DNA of 64,000 nt from an uncultured bacterium. GTDB lineage: Bacteria > Cyanobacteriota > Vampirovibrionia > Gastranaerophilales > Gastranaerophilaceae. A program made the translations under genes and the position numbers. The stretch spans positions 12,845 through 76,844 of the forward strand of contig CASDWY010000013.1 in the NCBI GenBank assembly GCA_949284985.1, in the 5' to 3' direction. Under the pieces are notes generated by a model. The model was not told where the DNA came from, ran no database searches, and saw only the letters and a program-made list of their open reading frames with translations. This document shows, one piece after another, positions 6,539 to 54,556 of the stretch (position 1 is the stretch's first letter; the number at the start of each line of letters is the position of its first letter).

Positions 6539-6550
6539 ATTTAATCACCA

Positions 6551-8593: not shown

Positions 8594-8602
8594 TTTTATT
8601 TA

Positions 8603-10429: not shown

Positions 10430-10450
10430 TTTTATAACTCCAGATTATAA

Positions 10451-20421: not shown

Positions 20422-22443
20422 TTACTTGCAAGAATTGCAACCGAAAGCGATTGTAACTTTTTCTTTAGGATTAATTGCAGAAATTTTCTTTCCGTCCGGA
20501 TCAACAAGATAAGCGACTTCTTCGCCTGTAACTTGAACCATACCGGAAACGCCGCTAATAGCTGTTCTTGTCAGGTCAATAGGAGCCTTAAAGAGAGCTT
20601 TACCAGAATCGAGGTAGCTTCTGCCTGCAGCTTTAAATTGTCCTTGGAATATTTCTCCTGTACCTGTACCGAATTCACTAACAACTTGTTCAAATGCGTT
20701 AGAAACTCCGATAGCTGCACCACCAACAGCACGTCCGGCTGTACCTACAACTTGACCAACGGTTGCAAATGGCCATTGAACAAGTCTAGCTATTGGGTTA
20801 GGAGTGTGTGTTCTGTTAACTTGCGCAGTTAGTACTTGGTTAGGCAAGTCTGCTTTGCAATCACAGTTTTCAATTGTATCAAATGATAATTTTAAAGCAC
20901 CATTGTTGCATTTAGAAGGTCTTTCTACTTCAAGAACTTTACCTCTAACAATAGAACCTTCCGGATAAAGAACACCGTTTATTGTCATCGGGTCAATAGT
21001 TTTTGCTGCAAATCTGTCGTTAACGTGAGCAGTACGAGCAGTAATTTCGTCGTCAAAACAAATTTTTAAAGTAGGAACAGTAACAGTTTCTGTTTTTTCC
21101 ATAAATGCAGCACCGCCTGTGCAGCCGCAGTCTGTAGCTGTAGCTATGTCTCTGTTTGAATATCCACCGGCTATGCGAACTTGTTCAAGCATAGATGCTA
21201 ATTCTGCACGACTTGCATCGGAATTAGGTCTAATTTGGTTTGGATTTGGCAAGTCTGCAATTGCACCAACATCAAGTGATTTTGCAACCGGAATTGCTGC
21301 CCATGATGGAACTTCGTTACCATCACAGTATTTGCTAAGTACTTCTTGTGCTTTGCAAGAATCCATGTCGCATTTAACTCCTTTTGAAAGGATGGTTAAT
21401 GCTTCTACTCTTGAAACAGGGTGATCAGGTTTGAATGTGTCGTTTGGATAACCTGTCATTAAACCTTCAGAAACACTTTTGTTGATAACTTTATTTGCCC
21501 AGTGGCTTTTTGGGACATCTTTAAAGTTAGCTTGAGGGCAGGTGTAGTCTTCGTTAAGATTGAACCCTTTTACAGCCATGCTTGCAAATTCTGCACGAGA
21601 AATAGGTAAGTTTGGCTTAAAAGTTCTATCAGGGTAGCCTGCTATAACTTTATTTTCTGTTAATTTATTGATGTCGCAACTAGCCCAGAAACCATCAGGA
21701 ACATCTTGGAATGCACTTACTACTGGTGCAGCTGCACCTGTTACACTGTTTTCTTGTGAATAGTTGAAAGGAACCATGGATTTTTTAATTGCTTCCATAC
21801 TGCTTTCCGTTTCAATATTTATTGGACAGTTTATGCCGTCAATGTTGTTGCAGTCACGCTGAACTGGTATTCCGCTAATTTTGTCACAACAATCATTGTT
21901 TAAACAAGGCATTTGAGCCGCTGCTCCGGTTTCGCATCCGCATTCAGGTGCAAGAGCTACAGGGATACCGCTATTCATAGCTAATGCTTGTGAGGTTGTG
22001 CTTCCATCACCTAGAAGAACACCTTGGTCAGATTCACCTACACGAACATTGTCGATACCATAAATCCCTGCCGGGTATGCGTAAATTTGGTGCTTGCATT
22101 TATCAGCACAAATGTTGTTTGGGCATACACCTGCAGCTGCAATGTCCGGACCATCACAAGTTGCAATGTCGTCGTCACAAGCCGTACAAGATTTTTTAGG
22201 CTTTTCGCATTCATTGCAGTTGTCTTCTTTTTTGGGCATACATTCACAATCTTTTTTGTTTTTTTTGCACTTCGGACATTTTGCGTTTTCCGGAGTTACA
22301 ACTTGCGGACAGTCATTGAGCGGACAAGCGCCTCCGGTAACTACCGGATTTGTGCATCCGCAATCAGCTAGCGCCAAATTCATTGTTCCGGCAACTAAAC
22401 CGACTGTTAATGCCGCTGCTAATGTCATTTTTTTGATAGTCAT
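20422..22443 (-). CDS. Cys-rich SLH-domain cell-envelope protein
   Basis: 673 aa with signal peptide. Cys-rich N-terminal ~220 aa. Three SLH repeats (FQDVPDGFWA...; FKDVPKSHWA...; VPSWAAIPVAKS...). C-terminal beta/Gly-rich module. Confidence 0.75.
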   Translation of the reverse strand: MTIKKMTLAAALTVGLVAGTMNLALADCGCTNPVVTGGACPLNDCPQVVTPENAKCPKCKKNKKDCECMPKKEDNCNECEKPKKSCTACDDDIATCDGPDIAAAGVCPNNICADKCKHQIYAYPAGIYGIDNVRVGESDQGVLLGDGSTTSQALAMNSGIPVALAPECGCETGAAAQMPCLNNDCCDKISGIPVQRDCNNIDGINCPINIETESSMEAIKKSMVPFNYSQENSVTGAAAPVVSAFQDVPDGFWASCDINKLTENKVIAGYPDRTFKPNLPISRAEFASMAVKGFNLNEDYTCPQANFKDVPKSHWANKVINKSVSEGLMTGYPNDTFKPDHPVSRVEALTILSKGVKCDMDSCKAQEVLSKYCDGNEVPSWAAIPVAKSLDVGAIADLPNPNQIRPNSDASRAELASMLEQVRIAGGYSNRDIATATDCGCTGGAAFMEKTETVTVPTLKICFDDEITARTAHVNDRFAAKTIDPMTINGVLYPEGSIVRGKVLEVERPSKCNNGALKLSFDTIENCDCKADLPNQVLTAQVNRTHTPNPIARLVQWPFATVGQVVGTAGRAVGGAAIGVSNAFEQVVSEFGTGTGEIFQGQFKAAGRSYLDSGKALFKAPIDLTRTAISGVSGMVQVTGEEVAYLVDPDGKKISAINPKEKVTIAFGCNSCK

Positions 22444-37698: not shown

Positions 37699-40506
37699 AT
37701 GTTTAATAAATTCAATAAAATGAGATTTATAAAAATTGCAAGGTGTAGTTTTCTTATAATATTGCTTTTGGCAGTTTTTGCGATGTTTTTGTATTTAAAA
37801 GTAGTTCCATCGATTGTTTCAAATGTCGGTGTTCAAAATAAAGTGGTCAAACTTGTAAAAAAAATGACCGGTGCTGATTTGGTTATCAAAAATTTACACA
37901 TGAAAACCAGATTATCTTCAGCAATAGATTTCCATGCCGGAGTTATATCTCTTTATAAAAATGATGAAAAATTATTGTTGGTTGCTGGATTAGATTCTAG
38001 TGTTTCTTTTAAAAAATTGCTTAAAAAAAGAATTGTGTTAAAAAAATTAGGAGCTTCGTATATTTTTGCTGATGTGAATAAATTGAGTGCATTAGCGCCT
38101 AAACAAGATAAGCAGGAAGCTGTTAAAAGTGATTGGCGGGTAGAGTGGTTTGATTCTCTTCTTTACATAAAAAAATGCCAGTTTTTATATAAAATTAACG
38201 AAGATTTAAACGTAAAAATTGATGGTACCGGCATAACTGTTGCAGATCGAAAAAATCCTAAATTTATGCGGTTTAATATAATTGCCGAGCTTGGAAAGGA
38301 CAATCAAAAAGTTACATTTGAGTTAGCGGATAATAATACTGTATATATAAAAAATCGTGCGTTGTATATTGATGACGGAGTTTTGAAAGTAAATAATTCA
38401 AAAGTCTCTATTAATGCATATTTGGGTGAAAAAAATATATATAATATAAAGGTTGCATCTAAAAAGTTTGATGTTAAAAATGTTGTGGACTTATTGGGTA
38501 CGAATTTGATTATTGCTAATGGTAAAGAAATTATAAGCTTTTTTGAGGATATAAAAGGTTGTTTTGACTTTGATGTTAATCTGAGTAATGACGGGTTGAA
38601 CGGAAAAGTAGACGTGGCTAATTCATCATTTAAATTGTTGCCGTTAAATGCTTTACCTGTATATGTTCAGACTGGGAATATAGAAATTTTAAGCAATGAA
38701 ATAAAACTTAAAAATTTTAAAGGGTTTTATGGAAAAAATAAACGAAATGTTGTGGCAATGGAGGGTAATGTATTAGATTACACAAAATCTGTAAATACAA
38801 ACATTTTAATAACAGGAAAAGCTACAAATGAGTTAACACGTGATTATTTGTCAAAACTTGTAGGATATCCTCTTTCTTTGACAGGAGATTGTGGCACAAG
38901 GTTGATTGTTAAATCTGTTTACAATGACGTAGATATTATTTGGCAATTCAAAGTGCCAAAAGGTTACGATATATTAGTTGATGGTGCTTCACTCAGTCCC
39001 GTTAATTATGATAGAGCACTGACAGCAGATATGCGTTTTGCAAATAATATTTTAGATGTTAAATCAATAAATTATTATATTGCATCAGTTTTAGATAAAA
39101 AGACAAAAGGTGTCAGACCTATTCTTACTATTGATGGTAAATTTGACATGGGAAAAGGCGGAGCTGTTCAAAATATTGGCTTTAAAATTCCAAAACCTTT
39201 ACCAAGTGAATTTTTAAACGTTTTAATAGGTCAAAAAATGTTTAAAAAAGGTACAATTGCCGGTAATTTACAAATGATTAATACTGGCGAATATCCTGTA
39301 ATAGATGGAAATATGGAAATTCAACAAGTTAGAATTCCATCTCAGAGACTTTCAATTAAAAGTGCAAAATTGTACACTAATAAAAATTCAATAAATATAA
39401 ATGCAAATGGAAGGTTTAAAAGATCTGCTTATAGTTTAACAGGAAATATTAAAAATAGTTTGGTCTTTCCTTTGATTGTTAAAAATATAAGCCTTAGTGT
39501 GGATAATATTGATGTAGATAGGCTGTTGACTTCTTTTAACAACCAAAATACTAACGCTGTAACGAAAATTGAGACTGAACGTCAAGAAAATATTGCTCAA
39601 TCCACCAATGATAATGATGATGAACAAAGCGATGATGCATACACTTTTGATACGGGGCTTATAATTATAGAAAAATGCGTCTTGAGCGTTGCCAAAGGAT
39701 TTTATAAGGAAATAAATTTTGGTAATTTAAAAGCTATGCTAACACTTGATAAAAATGGATTGTTGCAGGTCCATTCAAATAAATTTGATTTTGCAGAAGG
39801 TCTTTCTTCCTTAAAAGTTTCTTGTGATCTTAAAAATCACAAGTATAGTGTTGCCCTAGGGGTAAAAGAGGTTAATTCAGATTTAATAGCTACAACTTTG
39901 TTAGCGTTGAAAAGAGAAATTTCCGGTAAGGCAAATGGGCTTATAATGCTTAATACAGATGATTCTTTAAAACTAAATGGCAAAATGAAGTTTTCTATTA
40001 ATAATGGAACTATCGGCAAAATTGGTTTAGTCGAATATGTGTTAAAATTTGCATCTTTGTTTAGAAACCCATTGGCAATGATTAGTCCGTCTATGTTGGT
40101 AGATTTGGTAAATATCCCCGAAGGTCATTTTGATAATATAAACGGTGAACTTTTAATAAGTAACAATGTTATTGAAAAAATTATGATAAAATCATCTGCA
40201 CCGCAGTTAAGTTCTTTTATAATTGGGCGTTATGATTTAGAGAAAAATGATGCTATTTTGCGCATTTATACTAAATTTAGCAGTGCTCATAAAGGGCTAG
40301 CTGGCGCTTTGAGAAATATTTCTTTAAATAGTTTAGCAAGTAGAGTTTCATTCAACAGTAGAAATTATAGCAATTATTATGCTGCTGAGTTAAGTCAAAT
40401 TCCGCCAATTGATGCAGATGAAAAAGATTGTCAAGTATTTTTAACAAAAGTAGATGGTGATGTACAAAATAATAATTTCATTTCATCACTCAAAAAAATA
40501 AAATAA
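37699..40506 (+). CDS. AsmA/TamB-like large envelope protein
   Basis: 935 aa. A single N-terminal TM followed by a long beta-rich periplasmic region. The call rests on architecture, not motifs. Confidence 0.4.
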   Translation: MFNKFNKMRFIKIARCSFLIILLLAVFAMFLYLKVVPSIVSNVGVQNKVVKLVKKMTGADLVIKNLHMKTRLSSAIDFHAGVISLYKNDEKLLLVAGLDSSVSFKKLLKKRIVLKKLGASYIFADVNKLSALAPKQDKQEAVKSDWRVEWFDSLLYIKKCQFLYKINEDLNVKIDGTGITVADRKNPKFMRFNIIAELGKDNQKVTFELADNNTVYIKNRALYIDDGVLKVNNSKVSINAYLGEKNIYNIKVASKKFDVKNVVDLLGTNLIIANGKEIISFFEDIKGCFDFDVNLSNDGLNGKVDVANSSFKLLPLNALPVYVQTGNIEILSNEIKLKNFKGFYGKNKRNVVAMEGNVLDYTKSVNTNILITGKATNELTRDYLSKLVGYPLSLTGDCGTRLIVKSVYNDVDIIWQFKVPKGYDILVDGASLSPVNYDRALTADMRFANNILDVKSINYYIASVLDKKTKGVRPILTIDGKFDMGKGGAVQNIGFKIPKPLPSEFLNVLIGQKMFKKGTIAGNLQMINTGEYPVIDGNMEIQQVRIPSQRLSIKSAKLYTNKNSININANGRFKRSAYSLTGNIKNSLVFPLIVKNISLSVDNIDVDRLLTSFNNQNTNAVTKIETERQENIAQSTNDNDDEQSDDAYTFDTGLIIIEKCVLSVAKGFYKEINFGNLKAMLTLDKNGLLQVHSNKFDFAEGLSSLKVSCDLKNHKYSVALGVKEVNSDLIATTLLALKREISGKANGLIMLNTDDSLKLNGKMKFSINNGTIGKIGLVEYVLKFASLFRNPLAMISPSMLVDLVNIPEGHFDNINGELLISNNVIEKIMIKSSAPQLSSFIIGRYDLEKNDAILRIYTKFSSAHKGLAGALRNISLNSLASRVSFNSRNYSNYYAAELSQIPPIDADEKDCQVFLTKVDGDVQNNNFISSLKKIK

Positions 40507-41998: not shown

Positions 41999-42724
41999 TT
42001 AAAAGACGTTAAATTGATTATCTTTAAACTTTTTCTTTATTTTAAGAATTTCAGCTTTCGTGGGAATAGGGGTTCCGGCAAGAGGGTATTTAAGTCCTAG
42101 CTGTGCATATTTTTCCTTGCCCATATCATGATAAGGCAGAAGTTCTACTCTTTCTATTTCATATGGTTTGAGAAAATTAATAAGTTCGTCAATATAATTG
42201 TCTGACATCGTAATATTGGGGACAAGAACTTGTCGAATCCATAATTTCTTTTTATTTTGAGCAAGAAAATCAAGGAAATGCAATACTTTGTCATTTGGCT
42301 TTCCTGTGAGTTTTATATGTTCATTATTGTTAAGATGTTTAATATCTAACATAAATAAATCAGTTAAGTCAGTAAGGAGTTTGAGTTCACTGGTTATTTC
42401 AACGTATCCGCAAGTATCAATGGTTGTATGTATTCCATTAGCTTTTAGTTGTTTAAAAAGATCTATTAAAAAAGGAATTTGCAAAAGAGGTTCTCCACCA
42501 GAAACTGTGAATCCTCCGTTTGTTGTTTGGTAAAAAATTTTATATTTTAAAATATCAGTTACTAGTTCTGAAGTTTCTATTACTTTACCTTGCCCTGTCC
42601 AAGTATCTGGATTATGGCAAAATAAGCACCTAAAAGGGCATCCTTGAGTAAATAAAACATATCTCAATCCTGGCCCATCAAGGGTTCCTATTGTTTGAAT
42701 AGAGTGATAAAAACCTTTTGTCAT
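41999..42724 (-). CDS. pflA: Pyruvate formate-lyase activating enzyme (radical SAM)
   Basis: 241 aa. GPGLRYVLFTQGCPFRCLFCHNPDTW (CxxxCxxC), GGFTVSGGEPL. Confidence 0.92.
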   Translation of the reverse strand: MTKGFYHSIQTIGTLDGPGLRYVLFTQGCPFRCLFCHNPDTWTGQGKVIETSELVTDILKYKIFYQTTNGGFTVSGGEPLLQIPFLIDLFKQLKANGIHTTIDTCGYVEITSELKLLTDLTDLFMLDIKHLNNNEHIKLTGKPNDKVLHFLDFLAQNKKKLWIRQVLVPNITMSDNYIDELINFLKPYEIERVELLPYHDMGKEKYAQLGLKYPLAGTPIPTKAEILKIKKKFKDNQFNVF

Positions 42725-42786
42725 TTTTTTGTAAATATTAATCTGTAAAATAATAGCGGGAGTTCTTCCCGCTTTATATGTGTTAA

Positions 42787-45003
42787 TTATATTGTTGAGT
42801 GGAATGTTCTGTTTATCACATCCAACTGTTGTTCTTTTGTAAGTTTTACAAAGTTTACAGCATATCCACTTACACGAATAGTAAGTTGTGGATAATTTTC
42901 GGGATGTTCCATTGCATCTTGGAGAGTTTCTCTGTTTAGCACGTTAACATTCAAGTGTTGAGCCCCTTGGGAGAAGTATCCATCCATCATTCCAACAAGG
43001 TTTGATTTCTTTTCATCAAGGCTTTTCCCTAAGCTGTCAGGAATAATGCTGAAAGTATTTGAAATTCCGTCTTTTGCATTTTTAAATGGCAATTTTGCAA
43101 CAGAGCAAAGTGATGCAAGAGCACCTTTAGTGTCTCGTCCGTTAAAGGGGTTTGCGCCTGGAGAAAAAGGTACGCCGGAAACTCTTCCATCAGGCGTATC
43201 TCCGGTTTTTTTGCCGTAAACTACGTTGCTTGTTATTGTTAATATTGATTGCGTTGGGATTGAATTTCTGTAGGTTTTATTTTTTTCCAATTTGGACATA
43301 AATCTGTTTACAAGATCTACGCCAATTTGGTCAACACTATCGTCATTGTTTCCGTATTTTGGATAATCACCTTCAATTTCAAATCTTTTTGCAATACCAT
43401 TTTCTCTAATTGGGCGAACTTTAGCGTATTTGATAGCAGATAAAGAGTCTACTACAATACTGAAACCGGCTATTCCGCAGCCAAGTTTACGAATTGCATC
43501 TGTATCCATTAGCGCCATTTGTGCTTTTTCATAATTATATTTGTCGTGCATATAATGAATAATATTTAGTGCATTTACGTAAGTTTTAGCCAGCCAATCC
43601 ATTACTATATCAAATTTTTCCATTACTGTGTCGTAATCAAGTATTTCATCTGTAATTGGCTCGAAGTCCGCAACACGTTCATTTGTTCGTTCATCAATGC
43701 CACCATTAATTGTGTAAAGAAGTGCTTTTGCCAGGTTTGCACGTGCACCAAAGAATTGCATTTCTTTACCAATGATTAGCGGAGAAACGCAGCAGGCGAT
43801 AGCATAATCATCGTTTTGGAACATTTCACGCATTAAATCATCATTTTCATATTGAACAGCACTTGTTTCGATGCTGACTTTAGCGCAAAAATCTTTAAAT
43901 CCTTGAGGTAGCTGCCTGCTCCAAAGAACTGTCATGTTTGGTTCAGGCGCAGGACCGAGGTTTATCAAAGTTTGTAACATTCTGAAAGAGGTTTTAGTAA
44001 CAAGTGGTTTTCCATCAAGACTCATTCCTCCAATGCTTTCAGTTGTCCAAACGGGGTCTCCGCTGAAAAGATTGTTGTATTCTGGGGTTCTAAGAAAACG
44101 CACCATTCTTAATTTAATGATAAAATCATCAATAATTTCTTGTGCTTGTTCTTCTGTAATTTTCCCATTTTGCAAATCTTGCTCCGCATATATATCTAAG
44201 AATGTTGAAACTCTGCCCAAAGACATTGCTGCGCCATTCTGATCTTTAATTGCTGCTAAATAGCCCATATAAGTAAACTGTACAGCTTCTTTAAAACTTT
44301 CTGCAGGTTTGCTTATGTCTATATCATATGAAGCAGCCATTATTTTCATATCGTTAAGAGCTCTGATTTGTTCACTTAATTCTTCTCTAAGCCTAATTGT
44401 TTCCTCAAGCATTGGTTTATCTTCAAGATTAAGTTTGTCTTTTTGTTTTTCTTCAATAAGCTTATCAACACCGTAAAGAGCAATTCTTCTGTAGTCTCCA
44501 ATTATACGACCTCTGCCGTACGCATCAGGCAGACCTGTAATAATGGCTGAGTGACGGCATTTTTTTATTTGCGATGTATATGCATCAAAGACACCGTCGT
44601 TATGAGTTTTTCTGTATTTTGTGTAAATTGTTTTTAAATTTTCATCAACAGGAAGATTATAAGCAGCGCAAGAGGCTTCGACCATTCTGTATCCACCGTT
44701 TGGCATGATGGCTCTTTTTAATGGTGCATCTGTTTGTAATCCTACTATAATTTCATTCTCTTTATCTATATATCCTGGTGCATGAGAAGTTATACTAGAG
44801 GGAGTAGATGTATCTGCATCAAGAACTCCTTTTTTTTGTTCTTCTATCATTAATTTACTAACTATATCCCACATATGACGAGTTCTTTCGGTCGGACCGC
44901 TTAAAAAACTATCATCGCCATAGTATGGGGTGTAATTGTTTTTAATAAATTCGGAAACGTTAATCCCAGTCGTTTTTCGATTTAGTAAGACTTGCATTGA
45001 CAT
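42787..45003 (-). CDS. pflB: Formate C-acetyltransferase (pyruvate formate-lyase)
   Basis: 738 aa. Active-site CCVS and glycyl-radical motif [11 protein letters not shown] near the C-terminus. Confidence 0.95.
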
Positions 45004-45247: not shown

Positions 45248-46567
45248 ATGAAAAATATAGTTAAATTTTTAATAATAATTTGCTTAACAATTCAACCTGT
45301 TTTAGCTGCAGAAAAATTTAAAACTATTACTCTTGATGAAGCTATAAAATTATTTTTGCAAGAGAATATTGATTTGCGTGCGAAAAAAATGGATATTGAT
45401 GAGGCGACAAATAACATTAAAGTTGCGAATAAGCTTAATAATCCAAATTTAAATATATTTTACAACTATGGACAAGCCGGAGATGGAAATCCTCAGCAAA
45501 TTGGACTTAGTGAGGATATTGAGCTGTTTAAAAGAGATGCAAGGAAAAACTTAGCAAGAATAGATTTAAAACTTGAAAGTGATAGTTATGCATATTTGCA
45601 ATTTGAAAAAACAATGGACTTGAAAGAAGCTTATGTCAACCTTGTTTATGCCAAGTCTATTTTGGGGGCGTTAAAAGAGCAACAAAAATTGTATTTTGAT
45701 TTACTTGAAATAACTCGCCAAAGGGATAAAAATAAATTAGCGCAAGATGTTGATGTAATTCAAACTGAAATTGCTTTAAACCAGATGATTACTCAAGTTA
45801 ATTCAGCAGAGTTAAAAGTAAGAAAGGCGCGATATGAATTTAATAAAGCGTTAAATATTGATAATGATGAGATTTATGATGTAAAAGAGTCTAAATTACC
45901 TTTGCCAATGGATATTACAGATGGATCATTAAAAATACTTTACGCACCGGATTTGGATGGGGATGTAAAATCATTTGAAAGTATATTGCAAAGTGCGCTT
46001 GATAATCGTTATGATATTAAAATAGCGAAACATAGGTGGGATAAAGCTCGTCAAAATGTAATTGTGGTTTCAAGACAGAGAATCCCTGATTTGACAGTTA
46101 TGGGAGGATATGCATATCAACCTGCGAGATATGCGGATTCTAATCATGTTTTGCATGGTGCTTATGCAGGGGCAGGGTTAACTAATATTCCTATTTTATA
46201 CTTTTATGGCCCTGAAATAAAAAATGCTAAAATTCAAGTGGAACAGGCTGAATTAGATTATTTATCCGCAAAAAATAAAGCTGGCAAAAATCTTAAATCT
46301 GCTTATGACGCTTTTTTAACAGCACGAACTAATTTAAATGTTTATGGAACAAAACTTGTGAAAAACTCTGAAGAGTTGATAAAGGCTTCTAAAGAAAGTT
46401 ATGCTGCAGGGAGTTCTAATCTTACATCTCTTATTGTAATGGAGCAGTCTTATCAGACAATTATAATGGGGTATATGGATGCGTTAGCTGATTATTATAA
46501 TACTTGGCTTGATTTTTTGCGAGAAGTTAATTCGGAAGTATTTGAGATAGAAAAAGAAACATTGTAA
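45248..46567 (+). CDS. TolC-family outer membrane efflux protein
   Basis: 439 aa. Signal peptide and a two-repeat helical/beta architecture typical of OEP proteins. Confidence 0.6.
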   Translation: MKNIVKFLIIICLTIQPVLAAEKFKTITLDEAIKLFLQENIDLRAKKMDIDEATNNIKVANKLNNPNLNIFYNYGQAGDGNPQQIGLSEDIELFKRDARKNLARIDLKLESDSYAYLQFEKTMDLKEAYVNLVYAKSILGALKEQQKLYFDLLEITRQRDKNKLAQDVDVIQTEIALNQMITQVNSAELKVRKARYEFNKALNIDNDEIYDVKESKLPLPMDITDGSLKILYAPDLDGDVKSFESILQSALDNRYDIKIAKHRWDKARQNVIVVSRQRIPDLTVMGGYAYQPARYADSNHVLHGAYAGAGLTNIPILYFYGPEIKNAKIQVEQAELDYLSAKNKAGKNLKSAYDAFLTARTNLNVYGTKLVKNSEELIKASKESYAAGSSNLTSLIVMEQSYQTIIMGYMDALADYYNTWLDFLREVNSEVFEIEKETL

Positions 46568-46696: not shown

Positions 46697-47995
46697 ATGC
46701 TTACAAAATTAAAAAATGTTCAAACAAAGTTTACCGGGGTAGACTTTGGGAAATATTCTTCTAATGTAGAAAAGTTCGTAAAAGAATTTTCTTCACGAGC
46801 AAATCAAAAAGGGCAGTTTTTAAACTGGGTTAACCTCCCTCAAGAACAAGCGAAACGTGTTGATGAAATTTATTCTTTAGCTGATGGATTAAAAAAGCAA
46901 ACAGGAGCTAAAAAATTAAGTGTTATGGGTATCGGCGGATCAAAACACACTGTTGAGCATATGCTTTCCATAAATGGTTTAAATGTAAAACATGATGTAA
47001 TTGAGTTCTATTCAGATGTTGATTCTTCAAGCTGGGAAAGATTTTTATACAGATTAGATAATGATGTTTTGAGTTCAAATTTTATGATTGCATCAAAATC
47101 AGGGTCAACGTTTGAAACTAAAGATGGTTTTTTGAGAGTTCAAGCTATGTTGATAGATGCATATAAGTCTCAAGGTAAGTCTGAACAAGATGCACAAAAA
47201 GCTGCGAGTAAGCATTTTATAGCAGTTACAGATGCAAATGCAGAAAAAAGTGAGCTTAGAAGAACTTCAAACGAAAATGAATGGATTGGAGATTTATTTA
47301 TTCATGATGACGTAGGTGGACGTTTTTCTGCTTTTGATGATCATGCTTTATTTGCGTTGGCATATGCGGGAATGAAAAAAGAAGATATGTTAGAAATGTT
47401 AAATGCAGCACAAGAAGTTTCTAAGATCTCATTAACAGCAGATTTAGATGTAAATGACGCATTGAAAGAAGGTATATTTTGGGCAGATGCAAAGCTTAAT
47501 GGAATTGCTGCCTCAGTTCATCAATATATGGGTTCAATATTTGAAAATACGGTATATTGGCATGCACAAATGCAAAATGAATCTATTAAAGATACCTTAA
47601 AGCAAGTTGCAAAAGTGCCTGACGCAATGCATCACAGTGCAGAGGCACATTTTAATCCGGCAAATAAACTCGTATTTGCGTTGACTGTACCACAGGATAA
47701 TGGTGTATGTAGTGAGAATGCAAAAAGTTATATTGATGCATTGACTAAATCATATGAGGTTTCTGGGGCGTTTTTCTTGGAAACTATTTCTACTAGAGCA
47801 ATGGGATTAACTCCATCTGCAGCCGGTGCAATGACTCAACTTAGGGCTTTTGCAACTGTGTATCAGGAAATTGTTGAAAAAATTATGACTAATATTGAGT
47901 TCCCTGAGGTCTTGGAGAGTGTGCTTCAACCCCATGTTGAATTTTATAAGAAAAATCTGAAGGGTGGAGTTGTTGTCCCGGGTAGAATTTCATAG
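46697..47995 (+). CDS. pgi: Glucose-6-phosphate isomerase
   Basis: 432 aa. MGIGGSKH and DDVGGRFSAF sugar-isomerase motifs. Confidence 0.85.
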   Translation: MLTKLKNVQTKFTGVDFGKYSSNVEKFVKEFSSRANQKGQFLNWVNLPQEQAKRVDEIYSLADGLKKQTGAKKLSVMGIGGSKHTVEHMLSINGLNVKHDVIEFYSDVDSSSWERFLYRLDNDVLSSNFMIASKSGSTFETKDGFLRVQAMLIDAYKSQGKSEQDAQKAASKHFIAVTDANAEKSELRRTSNENEWIGDLFIHDDVGGRFSAFDDHALFALAYAGMKKEDMLEMLNAAQEVSKISLTADLDVNDALKEGIFWADAKLNGIAASVHQYMGSIFENTVYWHAQMQNESIKDTLKQVAKVPDAMHHSAEAHFNPANKLVFALTVPQDNGVCSENAKSYIDALTKSYEVSGAFFLETISTRAMGLTPSAAGAMTQLRAFATVYQEIVEKIMTNIEFPEVLESVLQPHVEFYKKNLKGGVVVPGRIS

Positions 47996-48004
47996 AAATG
48001 TATA

Positions 48005-48031
48005 AAAGGAGGCCTTAGGCCTCTTTTTTTT
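48005..48031 (+). terminator. Rho-independent terminator after pgi
   Basis: gaggcc-tta-ggcctc followed by T8. Confidence 0.8.
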
Positions 48032-48151
48032 CTGCATTTTTTTGACATTGAAATTTTTATCGCTTAGCTCTAGAGATTGTATGTGAATGGAAATAACTTG
48101 TTTTAATGCCAGTTTTGTAGTAATATTTTGATAAAATGGAGTATTATTTTT

Positions 48152-48361
48152 ATGCTTAATAAAGTAAATTTAAAAATTATACTGAGTTTGTTTTTTATTG
48201 TTATTTTAGGTTTAACTGTTGTTTTTTGTGTATTAAAACCGGTTATGCATAAGGGATTTAATATTAGTGTTATAGAATATGTTATAAAGTTTAACAAAGA
48301 TGGTAGTTTGACTCAAACAAAACAAGTTAAGACACATGAGGTTATAAAGGATAAAAAATGA
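48152..48361 (+). CDS. Small N-terminally anchored membrane protein (operon gene 1)
   Basis: 69 aa from the ATG after GGAG. One TM ending in the LKPVMHKGF motif shared with gene 5. ATGA overlap with gene 2. Confidence 0.5.
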   Translation: MLNKVNLKIILSLFFIVILGLTVVFCVLKPVMHKGFNISVIEYVIKFNKDGSLTQTKQVKTHEVIKDKK

Positions 48362-49386
48362 AAAAGATTGTAATCTTTATGTTTACATTAGTTTATTTAT
48401 CTTTTACGCAGTGTGTATGGGCATTTAGCAGCTTGTATTATTTAAAAGATATAAATAAAACAGTGGTGTCAGCTCAAGTTGAGCATGTTTTGAATTCAAA
48501 TGAATTTGTGATAAAAAAATCTTCTCCGATATATGCCGTAAAAGGTAAAAATGAAGAAGAAAAGGCTGTGATAATTTTAGAGCCTAGCGGTAACAATTTA
48601 TTTTATTATTTTGACTCAAATGATGATGCCAAAAAAATAAATTCAAAGATATTAAAACTCTTTAAAACAAATGGGATAAAATATGAACAGTCTTTTGATG
48701 AAAGTCATTTAAAAAATTTTGCAGATAAAGCATCAAGGGCAGTAAGCGGAGAAAAAAAAGTATATAATTTTGAATATTCCTCGAGTAATGTAAAAAGTGC
48801 GATTGTACAAAAAACTGAGTATGCGTCAAAGCTTAAGGGATATGTTGCTCAAATTGATAAAGGTGTGGGTTTTGGAGTTTATTTACAGAACTCAATATAC
48901 ACAGGCAATGCCAAAAAGGGGGATGCAGTTATAGCAGTATTGAAAGAGGATTGGATGTATGGCGGATATAAAATTGCAGCTCAAGGTAGCACTTTGTACG
49001 GTTGTGTAGAAGAGGCTAGAAAAGCATCAAAAGGTTTTAGAAATGGTTCAGTAAGTATAGCTTTTTATAAAATGCAAACTCCCGATGGTAGAGTTTATGA
49101 TTTGAGTACAGAAAAAATAAATTTTGATGTGTCGAATGAAGGAAAGGCAAAAAGTACTATTGTATCAGTAGGGATTGCTGCAGGAGTCGGAGCCGCATTG
49201 GGTGCATTGATTGCTGCAATTTCCGGTGATGGCTATTGGTTAAAAACAGCAGTCGGAGCAGCAGCTCTGGGTGGAGGAGTGTTGGCAAAAAATGCGTTGG
49301 AAGATGGCGTAGATGCGGAAATTCCGGCTTATACCGAGGTTGATGTTGTCCTTAGCAAACCTTTAAGCGTAGTTTTAAATTATTAG
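48358..49386 (+). CDS. Secreted protein with beta-rich domain and glycine-zipper segment (operon gene 2)
   Basis: 342 aa with signal peptide. ...GDAVIAVLKED...AAQGSTLYGCVEEARKASKGFRNGSVSIAF..., then GIAAGVGAALGALIAAISGDG. Confidence 0.6.
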   Translation: MKKIVIFMFTLVYLSFTQCVWAFSSLYYLKDINKTVVSAQVEHVLNSNEFVIKKSSPIYAVKGKNEEEKAVIILEPSGNNLFYYFDSNDDAKKINSKILKLFKTNGIKYEQSFDESHLKNFADKASRAVSGEKKVYNFEYSSSNVKSAIVQKTEYASKLKGYVAQIDKGVGFGVYLQNSIYTGNAKKGDAVIAVLKEDWMYGGYKIAAQGSTLYGCVEEARKASKGFRNGSVSIAFYKMQTPDGRVYDLSTEKINFDVSNEGKAKSTIVSVGIAAGVGAALGALIAAISGDGYWLKTAVGAAALGGGVLAKNALEDGVDAEIPAYTEVDVVLSKPLSVVLNY

Positions 49387-49399
49387 ATGAGGATTAAGA

Positions 49400-50068
49400 A
49401 TGAATAAAAAATTGATAATATCCGGAATATTAATATTAATTTGCTCTTTAGTGTTGAGCTTGTTAATTTTAGGGATTAAAAACATTAAAGTTGATGAGTT
49501 TCATCCTGTTTCAGTAATTTTTGTTGTAGATGCATCGGCGTCAAATCAGAGTCAGCTTGATGAAGAAATTAGTTATCTGAAGTCGCTTTGTTCTGTACTT
49601 GATCCGGAAGATAGTATTAAAATTATGAGGGTTTCTGAGTCTTCTTATTTGATATATGAGGGTTCACCTATGGATAGCGCGAGTATAAATAAAACACTCA
49701 AGGCTTTTACAAAGTATGATAAAGATGAGTATGGAACAGCTTATGGTGAAGCATTGCAAAAGGCCTTTGGACATGCATTAACAATGTACAAGGAAGGATA
49801 TATACCGTCTATTGTTATTATTGGTGATTTAGAGAATGAGGGAGATGCTTCTAAACAAATAAACTGGGATTTGTTGCCTAAAAATGTTGAAAACATTAAA
49901 AAATACGTCCCGGAAATATCTATGATGTTCGTTTATGCTCATCCGGAAAAACTGGATTTGGTTAAAAGCAAGCTTACTCCTGTTCTTGGAGAAAGAAAGC
50001 TTATTGTGGCTAATAAGGAAACTGCTGTTAAGTCACAAAGAAAACTGTTGAATGCAATTGGAAGATAG
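49400..50068 (+). CDS. Membrane-anchored von Willebrand factor A (vWA) domain protein (operon gene 3)
   Basis: 222 aa, N-terminal TM. MIDAS-like VIFVVDASASNQ, later GTAYGEAL and SIVIIGDLENEGD. Confidence 0.65.
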   Translation: MNKKLIISGILILICSLVLSLLILGIKNIKVDEFHPVSVIFVVDASASNQSQLDEEISYLKSLCSVLDPEDSIKIMRVSESSYLIYEGSPMDSASINKTLKAFTKYDKDEYGTAYGEALQKAFGHALTMYKEGYIPSIVIIGDLENEGDASKQINWDLLPKNVENIKKYVPEISMMFVYAHPEKLDLVKSKLTPVLGERKLIVANKETAVKSQRKLLNAIGR

Positions 50069-50077
50069 GAGTAAATT

Positions 50078-51676
50078 ATGATTTTTAGTATAATAACAAA
50101 AAATTCAGAAAGTACTTTTAGTGATAAAGAAATTGTTAATATATCATCAAAAACGGGTTTTGATTGTTGTATTAACTTTGGTTTTGATTATATGTTGACG
50201 GTGCAGTGTGATGAAAAAACAGGAAAGTGCGTGCTTTTAAATCAATTTAACTGTCAGAATTTTTTATTCAAAGGGCAGCCTCTTCCTCAAAAACTCGAAG
50301 TTGAAAAAATGTGTAAAATTATGGTTAAAGATTCTGATGAGTTTTTTATTATTAAAATAAATGATTCTTTGGCGGTTGCTAAAATTAAAGAAGATGAATT
50401 AACCGAAAAGGATTTAAAAGATTTATATGGTAGTGAAGTTAATGCGGCTGTTAGGTTAAAGATAGAAAAAAGAAAAACTGAAATAGAAGAGGCTCGTATT
50501 GCTATCATAAAACAGGTTTCATTTGCTATAAATGATTTTAGACATAAACTTTTAATGAATTCAAAAACAGGGATAGTATTACATATTGCACTATTAATTG
50601 CATCGTTAGTTTTAGCTTTTGGTCTATCAAATTATTTGATGGGTTTACCGCTTAAGGAGGCAGGCAATATAATACAAATGCCGGTTAATATGAAGCTTAT
50701 TTTTGCATATACATTAGTTGTTTATGGAATTGGACTTGTTTTAAAACAAGGAGTGTATCTTTCTATACAATCAAATGCACAGAATACTTTAGCAAGTAAT
50801 ACTATAGGTGAAAAGCTGATGATAATTTTATCAGCGTTGTTTTTTGCAGGTATTTATTTGGTTAACCTTTTGTATTATCTTTCTCCTGGGTCAATGCCAT
50901 TTTTTGCGGTGTTCATGTCTTTATTTTTTACTGTAACGTGTGTTACGCTTGCTGTTGCTTGTGGGTATTGTAAAAGTAGTAATGTGGAAATTGCAAAAGA
51001 ACTTAATAAATGTGAATATAGACCTGATTTTGAACAGGTTATAAAACAATATCAATTATGGATAGAGCGATTTATAAATAACCTTAGTCCGACCAAAATA
51101 CGAAATATTGGTGATAAGTTATTTATGTTACAAATAAAATCAATAGGTGAAACAATTTTAGGAATTTTAACGGCGCCATTTTTGGCTTATGGTGTTTCAA
51201 ATACTTTGGCATCTTGTTTTCCTGAGGCAGCCGGTTGGGTTAGAATTTCAGGTTTAAGATTTAGTCCTGTTTTTCTTGTTTTGGCAACTTTTATGATAAT
51301 TTTTGCGTTTTTTGCTTTTGTAAACGCTTTTTTGTGTAATAAAAAAATTCATGCTTCAAATGTTTTAAAAAACGATGGATTTAGTAATTATTTACAACAT
51401 GGTGTTGAAATATACGGACTTGAAGGTGTTAAAAAAATTGATGTAGAAATGAGGCGTTCTTTTGTAATTGCATTTAGTATAATTTTTATAGAGTTTTCAA
51501 TGAATATATCTTTCTTTATGCAAGAAATGGGTAATGATTTGGGCGGTTTGTTTTTAAGTGCGGTTGCGGCACTTGTTCCTACTGCGCTTTTGATTGCAGA
51601 GACTTATATGCTTAGTCAAACTAAGTTTGAAATATATGCTTCAGAAGAGCTATTGGCAAAAGTTGATAGAGGATAA
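50078..51676 (+). CDS. Polytopic membrane protein with degenerate FHA-like N-terminal domain (operon gene 4)
   Basis: 532 aa. The N-terminal ~95 aa have an FHA-like beta pattern without the canonical G-R/S-x-x-H residues. A charged helix follows, then about 8 hydrophobic segments. Confidence 0.5.
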   Translation: MIFSIITKNSESTFSDKEIVNISSKTGFDCCINFGFDYMLTVQCDEKTGKCVLLNQFNCQNFLFKGQPLPQKLEVEKMCKIMVKDSDEFFIIKINDSLAVAKIKEDELTEKDLKDLYGSEVNAAVRLKIEKRKTEIEEARIAIIKQVSFAINDFRHKLLMNSKTGIVLHIALLIASLVLAFGLSNYLMGLPLKEAGNIIQMPVNMKLIFAYTLVVYGIGLVLKQGVYLSIQSNAQNTLASNTIGEKLMIILSALFFAGIYLVNLLYYLSPGSMPFFAVFMSLFFTVTCVTLAVACGYCKSSNVEIAKELNKCEYRPDFEQVIKQYQLWIERFINNLSPTKIRNIGDKLFMLQIKSIGETILGILTAPFLAYGVSNTLASCFPEAAGWVRISGLRFSPVFLVLATFMIIFAFFAFVNAFLCNKKIHASNVLKNDGFSNYLQHGVEIYGLEGVKKIDVEMRRSFVIAFSIIFIEFSMNISFFMQEMGNDLGGLFLSAVAALVPTALLIAETYMLSQTKFEIYASEELLAKVDRG

Positions 51677-51682
51677 AACACT

Positions 51683-52351
51683 TTGTACAAGGTTTGTTCA
51701 ATAATATCTTTTATAGTTGTATTATTTATTGCATCAATTTTAATAACAATTTTTAAACCTGGGATGCATAAGCAGTTTTTCGTTTATGATTATAATTTTC
51801 AAATTGAGGAAAATGCAGCTGAAAAGGTGAAAGAACGGAAATTAGTACCGAAGGTTGAGTCTGTAAAATCAAAGCAGGAAGTAACAAAAACAGTCGAAAA
51901 GAAAACTGTAGAAAATATTAAGCCAAAGACTGCTGTTGGGCTTAAGCCTGTTAGTAAAAAAAATGTAAATAATAATATCCAAGAAAAGCAAGCACAACAA
52001 AAAGAAGAAATTTTATGGAACAAATGGAGATCTGATATTCAAAATAATATTATGTTGGATGTTAAACTGCCAATTGTTCCATCTGGAACGGTTTTTAGGT
52101 TTTCTTTTGATGTGGATAAATTTGGTAGAGTTACCAATATAAAAACTTGGTCAGAAGATGCCACTTATACTCCATATGCGATACAGTATATAGCTCCGGT
52201 TATTAGGAGTTATCAAGGACGAAGTATTTTAAATTTTCCGGTAGGCTCAAAAAGATTTTTAACTAATGTAGAGGGTGGTTGGAAAGTTTCTGATAAAAGT
52301 AAACTGAGCAGTCCGGATGATTATGATGATGTAGAACAAATTAGGAATTAG
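51683..52351 (+). CDS. Membrane-anchored TonB/TolA C-terminal-like domain protein (operon gene 5)
   Basis: 222 aa, TTG start. TM ending FKPGMHKQF, K/E-rich linker, C-terminal ...PSGTVFRFSFDVDKFGRVTNIKTW.... Confidence 0.5.
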   Translation: MYKVCSIISFIVVLFIASILITIFKPGMHKQFFVYDYNFQIEENAAEKVKERKLVPKVESVKSKQEVTKTVEKKTVENIKPKTAVGLKPVSKKNVNNNIQEKQAQQKEEILWNKWRSDIQNNIMLDVKLPIVPSGTVFRFSFDVDKFGRVTNIKTWSEDATYTPYAIQYIAPVIRSYQGRSILNFPVGSKRFLTNVEGGWKVSDKSKLSSPDDYDDVEQIRN

Positions 52352-52353
52352 TA

Positions 52354-53244
52354 ATGTATAAATGCAAAGATTGTGGACAAGAATACGTAGAAAAACCTCA
52401 ATATTGTGATTGTGGAAATAATGAGTTTGACGTGCTTTTAGAAAGTGCTTCTACTTTAATTAATCAGTCAGATGAAAAGCATTCTATTATAAGTTTGGAT
52501 AAATCAAAAGATATGAATAAGTATGAAATTATATCCTGGCTTATATTTTTAGTTTGCATAGTTTTATCTGTATTATCTTTTATTTTTATAGGCGGATATA
52601 AGCTGCAAGAAAGTGATAAAAATATTTTACAAGATGATAAAAAACATTTGTCATCTAAAAATGTAAATAAGCAAATTCCATCTATAAATGAACTATGGGA
52701 GGTTTCGTCTCCAAAAACATTTTCAACTCAGAACCAGAGTAAAAATGAGAATAGTAAAAATTTACAAAAAGAAGATGATAAAAATTTAAAAAAACAAGTA
52801 AATTATAAAAAACCAATAGAGGATAAGCCTAAAAAAGCAAAAGTGCAATCTAATAATGTTGATTTGTCAAAGAATACGGTTCAGAAGACAACAAATGAAA
52901 AAAAAGTGATAAGTAAGTCAGTAAAATCTAGAGAAACCGCCGAAGATAAACAGGAATTGTATCAGTATAAAATTGCGCTTCGAAATAAATTTGCATCAAA
53001 TATAAATTTTGCAGGAGTGAGTGGTGATGGGTATTGTGTTGTAACTTTTAAAATTTCATCAAAAGGTGAAATTGTAAACAGATCATTTTCAAAATTATCA
53101 AAGAATGACAGTTTAAATGATATGGTTTATGCCGGAGTTATGAAGACACCGTATTTTAATCCTCCTCCAAAAGCATATAAAAATGAGGCACTTAATTTGC
53201 ATGTAAAAATGTACGGTGGAAATTTTGAAGTGGCACTTAACTAG
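52354..53244 (+). CDS. Zinc-ribbon - TM - Lys-rich linker - TonB C-terminal-like domain protein (operon gene 6)
   Basis: 296 aa. MYKCKDCGQEYVEKPQYCDCGNNEF, one TM, C-terminal ...GDGYCVVTFKISSKGEIVNRSFSKLSKNDSLNDMVYAGVMKTPYFNPPP. Confidence 0.55.
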   Translation: MYKCKDCGQEYVEKPQYCDCGNNEFDVLLESASTLINQSDEKHSIISLDKSKDMNKYEIISWLIFLVCIVLSVLSFIFIGGYKLQESDKNILQDDKKHLSSKNVNKQIPSINELWEVSSPKTFSTQNQSKNENSKNLQKEDDKNLKKQVNYKKPIEDKPKKAKVQSNNVDLSKNTVQKTTNEKKVISKSVKSRETAEDKQELYQYKIALRNKFASNINFAGVSGDGYCVVTFKISSKGEIVNRSFSKLSKNDSLNDMVYAGVMKTPYFNPPPKAYKNEALNLHVKMYGGNFEVALN

Positions 53245-53252
53245 TAGGTGGA

Positions 53253-54155
53253 TTAATTTTTAATAAATTCATATTGTTGTTGTTTAATCGCAGGGGTGTT
53301 GATGGGTTTTTCAATAGTGTTGTAGATTGTATTTTTCAGAGATTCAATATTTGCCACAGTATAGAATTCTCCGCCTGTAGAAGTTGTAAGGCATTTTAGT
53401 GCTTTAGACAGAGAAGAAACCATAACTACATCAATAACTATATCTTGTCTTGACTTGATAAGATTTTTTACAAAACCGCAAGGGGAGCCGTTACAGGTTT
53501 CTCCTCCGTCAGTAACAATAATAATTTTTTTAGGAATGGATTGTGGAAAATTTGCGAAATCTGAGTATACAGCTCTGTCTAAAGCAAGGGTTAACGGGGT
53601 TGCATAACCAATAGAGACAGAATTCATTCCTATATATATATTGTTAGCGTTATTGGGTAAGATTTTTGTTATTTGAGATGTTGCAGAACACATTCCGGAA
53701 GTGTTACCTAAGTGAGAAGGTAATTTTAGAGATATTTTATAGTTGTTAGAAGTTTTTTTGTTGATACTGGTTGACATAGCCGAGGTTGCGTTGTATGGGT
53801 TAGCACCATTGTTGTGTCCAAAAACTCTAAGACCAACTTGAACATTGGAAGGCAGTTGTGAAACAACTTTTGTAATAGCATTTTTTGCCTCATTAATCCA
53901 AGGTTGCATGCTTCCCGAGTAATCAATAACAATGTCTATGATTTGGGTTGATGTGTTGTTTATTTGTGGATTGTTGGTGTAAGGTTGAATATAATAATTA
54001 TTTACATAATTGCTTGAATATGAAAGCGGTTTTGTTTGTTGAATATTACCATTAGGCGAAGTTATTTGTCCGCTTGTATTTATTTTGTAGCTAGCTGCAA
54101 ATCCTGTTAGTGTGATAAATGTGAGAACAATTAATGTTACAAAAAATCTTAGCAT
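53253..54155 (-). CDS. Secreted vWA domain protein
   Basis: 300 aa with signal peptide. MIDAS DIVIDYSGSM, ...VGLRVFGH..., IIIVTDGGETCNG. Confidence 0.7.
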   Translation of the reverse strand: MLRFFVTLIVLTFITLTGFAASYKINTSGQITSPNGNIQQTKPLSYSSNYVNNYYIQPYTNNPQINNTSTQIIDIVIDYSGSMQPWINEAKNAITKVVSQLPSNVQVGLRVFGHNNGANPYNATSAMSTSINKKTSNNYKISLKLPSHLGNTSGMCSATSQITKILPNNANNIYIGMNSVSIGYATPLTLALDRAVYSDFANFPQSIPKKIIIVTDGGETCNGSPCGFVKNLIKSRQDIVIDVVMVSSLSKALKCLTTSTGGEFYTVANIESLKNTIYNTIEKPINTPAIKQQQYEFIKN

Positions 54156-54292: not shown

Positions 54293-54368
54293 TGGTGGAG
54301 GCTAGGAGATTCGAACTCCTGACCCTCTGCGTGCAAAGCAGATGCTCTACCAACTGAGCTAAGCCCCC
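54293..54368 (-). tRNA. tRNA-Ala (anticodon UGC), CCA encoded
   Basis: Hand-folded cloverleaf: GGGGGCU acceptor with G3:U70, anticodon loop UUUGCAC, T-loop GGAGTTCGAATCTCC. 76 nt. Confidence 0.9.
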
Positions 54369-54480: not shown

Positions 54481-54556
54481 TGGTGGGCGGTACTGGACTC
54501 GAACCAGCGACCTCCACAATGTCAATGTGATGCGCTACCAACTGCGCCAACCGCCC
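54481..54556 (-). tRNA. tRNA-Val (anticodon GAC), CCA encoded
   Basis: Hand-folded cloverleaf: GGGCGGU acceptor, anticodon loop UUGACAU, T-loop GGTTCGAGTCC. 76 nt. Confidence 0.88.

Follow-up and report, generated by a model that had tools for sequence, protein, structure and literature searches.

We describe a block of seven genes, g1 to g7, that occupies positions 48,152 to 54,155 of a 64,000-nucleotide stretch of DNA (the window) from an uncultured bacterium of the Gastranaerophilaceae. As a unit, the seven genes are conserved independently of their surroundings, and all of their products are membrane-anchored or exported. We tentatively favor the reading that the products of the block make up a single trans-envelope complex specific to the Gastranaerophilales lineage, with g4 as its inner-membrane hub. 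The case for a single functional unit is made by the fixed synteny and tight gaps of the genes, by the retention of the window flanks in only 0-1 of 80 related loci, and by the presence of a vWA-g4-g5 core in divergent relatives. New in this work are the assignment of g2 as VirB10-like, the recognition of g1 as a paralogue of the g5 anchor, and the definition of the vWA-g4-g5 core.

The coupling of the energized inner membrane to the outer membrane outside Proteobacteria is an open question for diderm bacteria, above all on the Terrabacteria/Cyanobacteriota side of the tree, where to our knowledge the Tol-Pal system is often absent. The cluster is a compact, order-wide candidate for such coupling that reuses a TonB C-terminal domain (TonB-C), a VirB10 C-terminal domain and a tethered vWA domain around an orphan membrane protein. 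It comes without a recognizable motor and is confined to one uncultured lineage that is widespread in the gut. If the complex acts as a tether or gate, it would represent a new solution for outer-membrane coupling in this widespread gut lineage, and if g4 is an energizer, it would represent a new class of envelope motor. In either case, folds are assigned to proteins that had no functional name apart from one g2 orthologue, and testable predictions of subunit contacts are obtained.

Conservation of the gene cluster

The distribution of the cluster was assessed by a scan for g4 in one genome per GTDB species, which yielded 407 positive genomes; synteny was counted in the best 80 of the 407 loci using tblastn and mapping of open reading frames (ORFs). 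Matches were obtained for g4 at all 80 loci, g5 at 79, g2 at 76, g6 at 73, g3 at 70, g1 at 62 and g7 at 51. Wherever the genes matched, the g1-g6 order was constant and the gaps were short. The genes that flank the cluster in the window recur upstream or downstream in 0-1 of the 80 loci, and the downstream flank varies past g7 even among strains with 100%-identical g4 proteins. Since the same gene order occurs in 80 species genomes with unrelated flanks, the arrangement is not due to chance. Conservation of gene order, on which an earlier note on this DNA had made its proposal of a novel system depend, therefore holds in at least 80 Gastranaerophilales species. The most conserved members of the block are g3 and g4, with 55-77% identity across the order, a level more in line with a core function of the cell than with an accessory one.

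The convergent gene g7 directly follows g6 in 51 of the 68 loci that extend 1 kb or more downstream. All 17 loci devoid of g7 retain g3, and the loci devoid of g3 keep g7 wherever the downstream sequence suffices, so at least one vWA gene is found at every locus with enough sequence. In one sub-lineage of the Gastranaerophilales the cluster has neither g1 nor g3, and g2 stands directly before g4 (loci L030, L031, L037, L045, L046, L049, L064, L073 and L078).

Two relatives, L087 and L088, have g4 proteins of only 27-36% identity that carry no FHA domain. Both retain the order of a transmembrane (TM)-anchored vWA gene, g4 and a g5-like gene (E 2.8e-5 for the g5 homologue of L087), and these three genes constitute the core of the system. 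L087 is the most divergent relative and is loosely placed in Cyanobacteriota by its glutamine synthetase.

Between the g4-like and g5-like genes of L087 lies a gene (9306-11228, plus strand) for a 640-aa protein with a canonical FHA domain (E 9e-12) and a double zinc ribbon (E 2.4e-8). The same protein contains a kinase-like domain that falls below the Pfam threshold and shows no HRD motif by eye, as well as a C-terminal TM-like hydrophobic segment. Comparison of these sequences suggests that the FHA and zinc-ribbon modules were redistributed among subunits in evolution. A transfer of the FHA domain itself between the two genes is unsupported by sequence, as hhalign gave a probability of 0.1% for the g4 N-terminal domain against the canonical FHA domain of the L087 neighbor.

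The layout reported in the earlier note was reproduced exactly by the ORF list, with seven ORFs and gaps of -4, 13, 9, 6 and 2 nt from g1 to g6; the g7 stop codon lies 8 nt past that of g6 in convergent orientation. A GC-rich hairpin found upstream by sequence reading and a terminator scan is likely the terminator of the upstream 432-aa gene. It sets the block apart from that gene, which fits a transcription unit beginning at g1. Proteins identical to g2-g7 are present among the called genes of public assemblies, with g1 called in the same contigs. Homologues and loci are labeled Candidatus Gastranaerophilales, Gastranaerophilaceae or Melainabacteria, in keeping with the Vampirovibrionia named in the earlier note, and the GC content is ~30-35%. 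A single N-terminal hydrophobic helix was detected by a hydropathy scan in each of g1, g2, g3, g5 and g7.

The hub candidate g4

By hydropathy, g4 consists of a soluble N-terminus of 164 residues followed by 7-8 TM helices. The soluble part comprises a domain of FHA fold (residues 1-95) and a long helix that leads into the TM region. The AlphaFold2 model of the 95-residue N-terminal domain has a predicted local distance difference test score (pLDDT) of ~80-87. Its best Foldseek match is 6ccd (TM score 0.77, root-mean-square deviation 2.3 Å over 96 columns), and ~48 of the 50 matches listed are FHA domains. The full-length model returned FHA matches only, as its membrane part is poorly modeled. 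The Pfam FHA profile matched neither the g4 of the window nor its eight divergent relatives, and the canonical phosphothreonine-binding Gly-Arg and Ser-x-x-His residues are not evident by eye on the translation at the expected sites (ISSK / FDYML). According to the model, the N-terminus of g4 has an FHA fold, an assignment made at the level of fold only. The degenerate FHA-like domain and roughly eight TM segments of the earlier note are thus retained as a fold and as 7-8 helices, while FHA membership at the sequence level is not.

No relative of the g4 membrane domain was found in Pfam, NCBIfam, PADLOC or PDB, and eight divergent relatives gave no match either. A 24-sequence profile found nothing among PDB sequences at E-values up to 10. 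The idea that g4 belongs to a known type of transporter, enzyme or motor was rejected, given no match in Pfam, NCBIfam or PDB sequences. An exhaustive hidden Markov model search of 1.84 billion cluster representatives retrieved 128 proteins, mostly fragments, and by these sequence comparisons the membrane domain is an orphan family. Its most conserved segment, residues 358-400, is nearly invariant family-wide. The last two helices contain the invariant residues E472, N476 and P501-T502 and the near-invariant E508. Together with the conserved segment, these positions are a candidate functional site.

Anchors and TonB-type domains of g1, g5 and g6

The g6 protein begins with a C4 zinc ribbon predicted to be cytoplasmic (C4, C7, C18 and C20, in the sequence CKDCG...CDCGN), followed by a TM helix (residues 59-77) and, beyond a variable Lys-rich linker, by a TonB-C domain (~205-296). 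The four cysteines are invariant in the ortholog alignment. Pfam TonB_2 matches g6 of the window at E 3.4e-5 and all 29 orthologues, Pfam TonB_C matches 19 of the 29, and a PDB TonB match was obtained at E 0.049. On the strength of these profile matches g6 carries a TonB C-terminal domain, and the architecture proposed for it in the earlier note stands in full. The g6 helix, IISWLIFLVCIVLSVLSFI, contains no His, and hence no intramembrane SHLS/His motif.

In g5, a TM helix with a juxtamembrane KPxMHK motif is joined through a variable charged linker to a C-terminal domain akin to the TonB-C domain of g6. Pfam matched none of its 29 orthologues, and a PDB profile search gave nothing useful. In the hhalign comparison, the alignment of the g5 C-terminal domain covered the first half of the TonB-C domain of g6 (91.9%, E 6.9e-7, 48 columns), and a weak NCBIfam TonB match was observed (1.2e-3). 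Thus, g5 probably ends in a TonB-type C-terminal domain. The TM segment predicted earlier is present, and the TonB/TolA-C-like domain predicted with it is supported by profile-profile comparison alone, with no Pfam match among the orthologues.

In the single-pass g1 protein, the TM helix is followed by a juxtamembrane KPxMHK motif (P30, H33), which the ortholog alignment shows to be invariant, and by a short tail that is also conserved. Its hhalign comparison with the g5 anchor gave 97% probability (E 1e-10), with the helix and the invariant KPxMHK common to both. This sequence relationship makes g1 paralogous to the membrane anchor at the N-terminus of g5. It had been noted before as a TM anchor; the single helix is confirmed, and the protein is more than an anchor in being a paralogue. 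The invariant His of g5 and g1 is placed after the helix, inside KPxMHK, and no SHLS/His motif occurs within the helix.

The VirB10/TrbI-like protein g2

In g2 a signal-peptide-like N-terminus is followed by an alpha/beta domain (~23-130) and a VirB10/TrbI-like beta-barrel (~160-342). The copy in the window had no Pfam score, and a PDB profile search with g2 gave nothing useful. Its orthologues match Pfam TrbI in 9 of 29 cases (best E 3.6e-10) and Gly-zipper_YMGG in 13 of 29, and one of them is named 'TrbI/VirB10 family protein' by NCBI. The beta domain is confidently modeled by AlphaFold2 (pLDDT 80-89). Its top eight Foldseek matches in PDB are C-terminal domains of the VirB10 family (CagY, TrwE, TraF) with E-values from 3e-6 to 4e-4, in alignments of ~200-234 columns to targets that are ~200-240 residues long. 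We conclude that g2 is a homologue of the VirB10/TrbI C-terminal domain, which is a new assignment. Of the signal peptide, beta domain and glycine zipper previously read from the sequence, all three are present, and the beta domain is now refined to a VirB10/TrbI C-terminal domain.

The glycine-zipper helices of g2 are inserted in the barrel ahead of the last two strands. An insertion at this point is presumably the site of the outer-membrane-spanning antenna in VirB10 structures, so that the glycine-zipper helices of the g2 model may be positionally equivalent to the VirB10 antenna. Two distant g2 homologues, P0261 and P0262, carry an SLH domain, which in P0261 is fused with a TrbI-like domain.

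The vWA proteins g3 and g7

The vWA domain of g3 (Pfam VWA_2, E 3.3e-6; motif VVDASASNQ) begins at residue ~36, directly after an N-terminal TM helix (residues 5-23). Its metal ion-dependent adhesion site (MIDAS) is intact, with D44-x-S46-x-S48, T113 and D143 conserved in ortholog alignments. The helix contains no His and no Asp in 12 aligned sequences. The exported g7 protein (Pfam VWA, E 1.5e-8; motif IDYSGSMQ) has a full MIDAS (D78, S80, S82, T186, D216) that is invariant in the ortholog alignment. Four of its cysteines are likewise invariant, and the N-terminus of the mature protein is conserved (YKxNTSG). No lipobox cysteine follows its signal sequence.

Pfam matches and conserved MIDAS residues therefore bear out a TM-tethered vWA domain in g3 and a secreted one in g7, and the DASAS, DYSGSM and C4 motifs attributed to g3, g7 and g6 were all found in the translations. 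Each of the folds on which the earlier proposal relied was recovered, namely vWA by Pfam, TonB-C by the g6 orthologue matches and the g5-g6 comparison, and FHA by AlphaFold and Foldseek.

A proposed trans-envelope complex and its alternatives

In the complex that we favor, g4 would be the hub in the inner membrane, onto which the single-pass anchors of g1, g5, g6 and g3 would dock. Both g5 and g6 would cross the periplasm by means of their variable charged linkers. The g2 protein would form an oligomeric ring with its glycine-zipper helices inserted into the outer membrane, as in VirB10. The vWA domains of g3 and g7 may provide metal-dependent contacts among parts of the complex or with a ligand, and the conserved N-terminal strand of g7 could be bound by a TonB-C domain in the way of a TonB box or the TolB N-terminus. 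On the inner side, the FHA fold of g4 and the zinc ribbon of g6 would link the complex to cytoplasmic partners. We infer every contact and localization in this scheme, the topology being read from hydropathy and signal-peptide-like N-termini. An envelope-spanning complex, as first suggested by the earlier note, is thus supported by the conserved unit and its domains, and the compartment orientation is carried by that inference.

A further step, which we consider unlikely, is that the invariant intramembrane Glu and Asn make g4 an ion-driven energizer replacing ExbBD/TolQR. Equally unlikely in our estimation, g4 would then be a new class of inner-membrane energizer or hub, its Glu/Asn site driving TonB-like (g5, g6, g1) and vWA (g3) transducers that act on a VirB10-like outer-membrane ring. 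If true, force would be transduced without the universal MotA/ExbB/TolQ 5:2 motor, possibly as a substitute for Tol-Pal or Ton in non-photosynthetic Cyanobacteriota.

Several observations weigh against the complex as proposed. No motor, ATPase or receptor was found in or near the cluster, which leaves the mechanical model with no demonstrated energy source, and neither MotA/ExbB/TolQ nor any protein of solved structure resembles g4 (Pfam, PDB profile, divergent relatives). The membrane domain of g4 is modeled at low confidence (pLDDT 30-50), and its FHA domain has no detectable sequence similarity to canonical FHA domains. The TonB-C assignment of g5 hangs on the 48 columns aligned in the profile-profile comparison. 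The zipper region of g2 is likewise of low confidence (pLDDT 30-50), which makes outer-membrane insertion an analogy. Finally, the absence of g1 and g3 in one sub-lineage and of g7 in a quarter of the loci indicates that the subunit composition is not fixed.

Four other readings were weighed. The cluster could be a transmembrane sensing or signaling module in which a periplasmic vWA domain binds a metal or ligand and the signal passes via g4 to the cytoplasmic FHA fold and zinc ribbon, much as in the vWA-FHA-kinase scheme of TerY-P-type systems. The conserved MIDAS sites agree with this, and so does L087, where g4 lacks the FHA domain and the next gene combines canonical FHA, double zinc-ribbon and kinase-like domains, suggesting a phospho-signaling-type component in the ancestral system. 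However, the kinase-like domain of L087 is the one described above as below the Pfam threshold and missing the catalytic HRD by eye, and no gene of the window cluster encodes a kinase or phosphatase (Pfam, NCBIfam). Moreover, the canonical phosphothreonine-binding residues were not seen by eye in the g4 FHA domain, and a VirB10-like protein and two long-linker TonB-C proteins would be left unexplained. We regard a signaling module as rather unlikely.

The homology of g2 to the VirB10 C-terminal domain would also be expected of a minimal secretion or uptake conduit derived from a type IV secretion system (T4SS), with g2 as the ring pore, g4 as the channel or transporter and the vWA proteins as cargo or receptors. 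The invariant intramembrane Glu, Asn and Pro-Thr of g4 are of the kind expected for a transporter or channel, and g7 is exported and cysteine-rich. Such a conduit is unlikely, since the VirB4, VirB11 and VirD4 ATPases, VirB9, VirB7 and pilin were not found in the cluster or its flanks, g2 has no N-terminal inner-membrane anchor of the VirB10 type, and no transporter family matches g4.

A surface-adhesion or gliding apparatus analogous to Agl-Glt, with g6 and g5 as counterparts of GltJ and GltG and g7 (possibly also g3) as a CglB-like adhesin, is quite unlikely, as is the role that g2 would then play as the outer-membrane platform presenting the adhesin. The domain order of g6 is that of GltJ from the Myxococcus Agl-Glt machine (zinc ribbon, GYF, TM, disordered linker, TonB-C) minus GYF (PMC11135422). 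The CglB component of the Myxococcus gliding machine is a vWA adhesin (PMC9946355), and two vWA proteins with an intact MIDAS are encoded here. Against these parallels, no AglRQS/TolQR-type motor lies near the cluster, and GYF domains, TPR proteins and outer-membrane beta-barrel proteins were not detected by Pfam or NCBIfam. In addition, g7 has no lipobox cysteine, other motility systems exist in the organism (flagellins and a secretin/T2SSE/T2SSF set), and the likeness is limited to common domains.

That the genes are not one system, and are unrelated envelope genes adjacent through close kinship of the sampled genomes, is very improbable: all 80 loci do come from a single order and g1, g3 and g7 are each missing somewhere, but the flanks are already scrambled in the same genomes (0-1 of 80 keep those of the window), gaps of at most 13 nt and the 4-nt overlap are maintained, the vWA-g4-g5 core persists at 27-36% g4 identity, and g1/g5 as well as g5/g6 are paralogous.

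Genomic surroundings

The coordinates of the cluster genes, their segments of interest and neighboring features are given in Table 1. Beyond the block, the window holds genes for flagellins, for a secretin/T2SSE/T2SSF set, for RelA and for an SLH protein, along with pyruvate formate-lyase and further housekeeping functions; ExbB, ExbD and TolQ do not appear among the annotations listed.

Table 1. Positions of the cluster genes and of other features in the window (coordinates in nucleotides of the window).
Feature	Position	Strand	Description	Basis
g1	48152-48361	+	69 aa, ATG start; upstream TTG (48128) gives 77 aa	
g2	48358-49386	+	342 aa	
g3	49400-50068	+	222 aa	
g4	50078-51676	+	532 aa	
g5	51683-52351	+	222 aa, TTG start	
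g6	52354-53244	+	296 aa	
g7	53253-54155	-	300 aa, convergent	
g2 glycine-zipper helical segment	49159-49302	+	residues ~268-315	hydropathy, model secondary structure
g4 most conserved segment	51149-51277	+	residues 358-400, E..LGILTAPFLAYGVSNTLA.CFPEAAGW.R.SGLRFSP	family alignments
Hairpin, likely terminator of the upstream gene	48009-48035	+	GC-rich, GAGGCC-TTA-GGCCTC then T8	sequence reading, terminator scan
Two adjacent ORFs, one flagellin	1792-2691, 2808-3707	+	299 aa each	Pfam listing, matching public contig
Secretin, T2SSE/MshEN ATPase, T2SSF platform protein	5324-10429	-	608, 680 and 404 aa, consecutive	
SLH-domain protein	20422-22443	-	673 aa	
Protein with no recorded Pfam family	37699-40506	+	935 aa	public gene calls
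Pyruvate formate-lyase and activating enzyme	41999-45003	-		
TolC-like outer-membrane efflux protein (OEP)	45248-46567	+		
Protein with no recorded Pfam family	46697-47995	+	432 aa	public gene calls
tRNA-Ala(TGC)	54293-54368	-		
tRNA-Val(GAC)	54481-54556	-		

Directly upstream of the cluster lies the gene for the 432-aa protein, which is kept there in one of the 80 related loci. The public gene calls record no Pfam family for this protein or for the 935-aa protein further upstream. Genes for pyruvate formate-lyase and its activating enzyme, together with an OEP gene, also occur on this side. Just beyond g7 are the tRNA-Ala and tRNA-Val genes, and a strain-level rearrangement breakpoint lies approximately at this pair: in a comparison of L002 and L004 with L001, L003 and L005, strains with a 100%-identical g4 protein continue either with QueH/VKOR-DsbA genes or with DUF3137/LemA/polysaccharide genes. 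The upstream OEP/TolC-like gene and the downstream QueH/VKOR genes were ruled out as parts of the system, as none of the other 80 species carries them in its flanks.

Elsewhere in the window, the consecutive secretin, T2SSE and T2SSF genes look like a set for type IV pili or type II secretion. One of two adjacent 299-aa ORFs has Flagellin_N/Flagellin_C domains and the other has no match; the organism is probably flagellated. The 673-aa SLH protein may tether the outer membrane to peptidoglycan in the way of OmpM, which would be relevant to outer-membrane retention in the lineage. A MotA/MotB pair is encoded in a related genome (L027, 646-2473). This flagellar pair, found at a single locus, was rejected as a motor of the cluster, the match being marginal and not syntenic.

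Comparison with known systems

No description of the cluster was found in the literature, and apart from the one g2 orthologue named by NCBI, none of the proteins has a functional name in the sources checked. As the earlier note had expected, Pfam, NCBIfam, PADLOC and PDB profiles place the genes in no described operon, and a defense system was rejected for want of a credible PADLOC match. Its statement that the cluster encodes no ATPase, kinase, phosphatase, ExbBD/TolQR or TonB-dependent receptor also agrees with the profile searches. No kinase, phosphatase, receptor or ATPase was detected in or near the window cluster (Pfam, NCBIfam, annotated flanks), and MotA_ExbB and ExbD matched none of the seven proteins or the annotated flanks. 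A rough tblastn screen with ExbBD/TolQR queries found no significant match in 1.43 Mb comprising 92 loci and the window. The defining partners of Bat, Tol-Pal and TonB, systems which the cluster was said not to fit, were not found in or near it.

TM-tethered vWA proteins encoded beside tolQ(R)-like genes have been proposed as periplasmic force transducers, in families reported from Proteobacteria, the PVC group and Bacteroidetes but none from Cyanobacteriota (PMC12204202). The g3 protein resembles them in carrying its vWA domain on one N-terminal helix and in adjoining the gene of a tightly co-occurring polytopic membrane protein. In contrast to these families, no search relates the neighbor g4 to TolQ, the SHLS His and an Asp of the ExbD/TolR type are both missing from the g3 helix, and the linker between helix and vWA domain is almost nil.

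The likeness to the Agl-Glt machine is at the level of domains only and rests on the published description of GltJ: g6 has the same succession of zinc ribbon, TM helix, linker and TonB-C, and it is accompanied by another TonB-C protein and by a vWA protein. The differences lie in the missing AglRQS motor, GYF domain, and TPR and outer-membrane barrel components, and in a vWA protein without a lipoprotein signal.

MIDAS-containing vWA proteins together with an FHA fold and zinc ribbons, joined by a kinase-like domain in the divergent L087, recall the vWA-FHA-kinase signaling sets of the TerY-P triad. Unlike TerY-P and Bat, the window cluster has no PP2C phosphatase, active kinase, MoxR ATPase or DUF58 protein (Pfam, NCBIfam).

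With T4SS proteins of the VirB10/TrbI family (CagY, TrwE, TraF), g2 shares the C-terminal beta-barrel fold and a helical insertion near the C-terminus. It differs from VirB10 in that a cleavable-looking signal sequence replaces the N-terminal inner-membrane anchor and Pro-rich region, the N-terminal alpha/beta domain is of another kind, and the helices form a glycine zipper. VirB4/VirB11/VirD4, VirB9 and VirB7 are lacking in the cluster and within 10 kb of it.

With the Ton and Tol systems, the cluster shares single-pass inner-membrane proteins (g6, and probably g5) in which a variable linker leads to a TonB/TolA-type C-terminal domain, and with them the logic of an inner-membrane complex extending toward the outer membrane. 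Neither the cluster nor its flanks contain ExbB/TolQ, ExbD/TolR, a TonB-dependent receptor, the TolB beta-propeller or the OmpA-like lipoprotein Pal (Pfam, NCBIfam). In place of an intramembrane SHLS/His motif its anchors carry the juxtamembrane KPxMHK, and the part of inner-membrane partner would fall to an orphan protein of 7-8 TM helices that has an FHA fold. The cluster lacks defining features of Ton, Tol-Pal, T4SS, Agl-Glt, Bat and TerY-P, and the complex that we tentatively propose would work in the manner of Ton/Tol or VirB10 while belonging to neither system.

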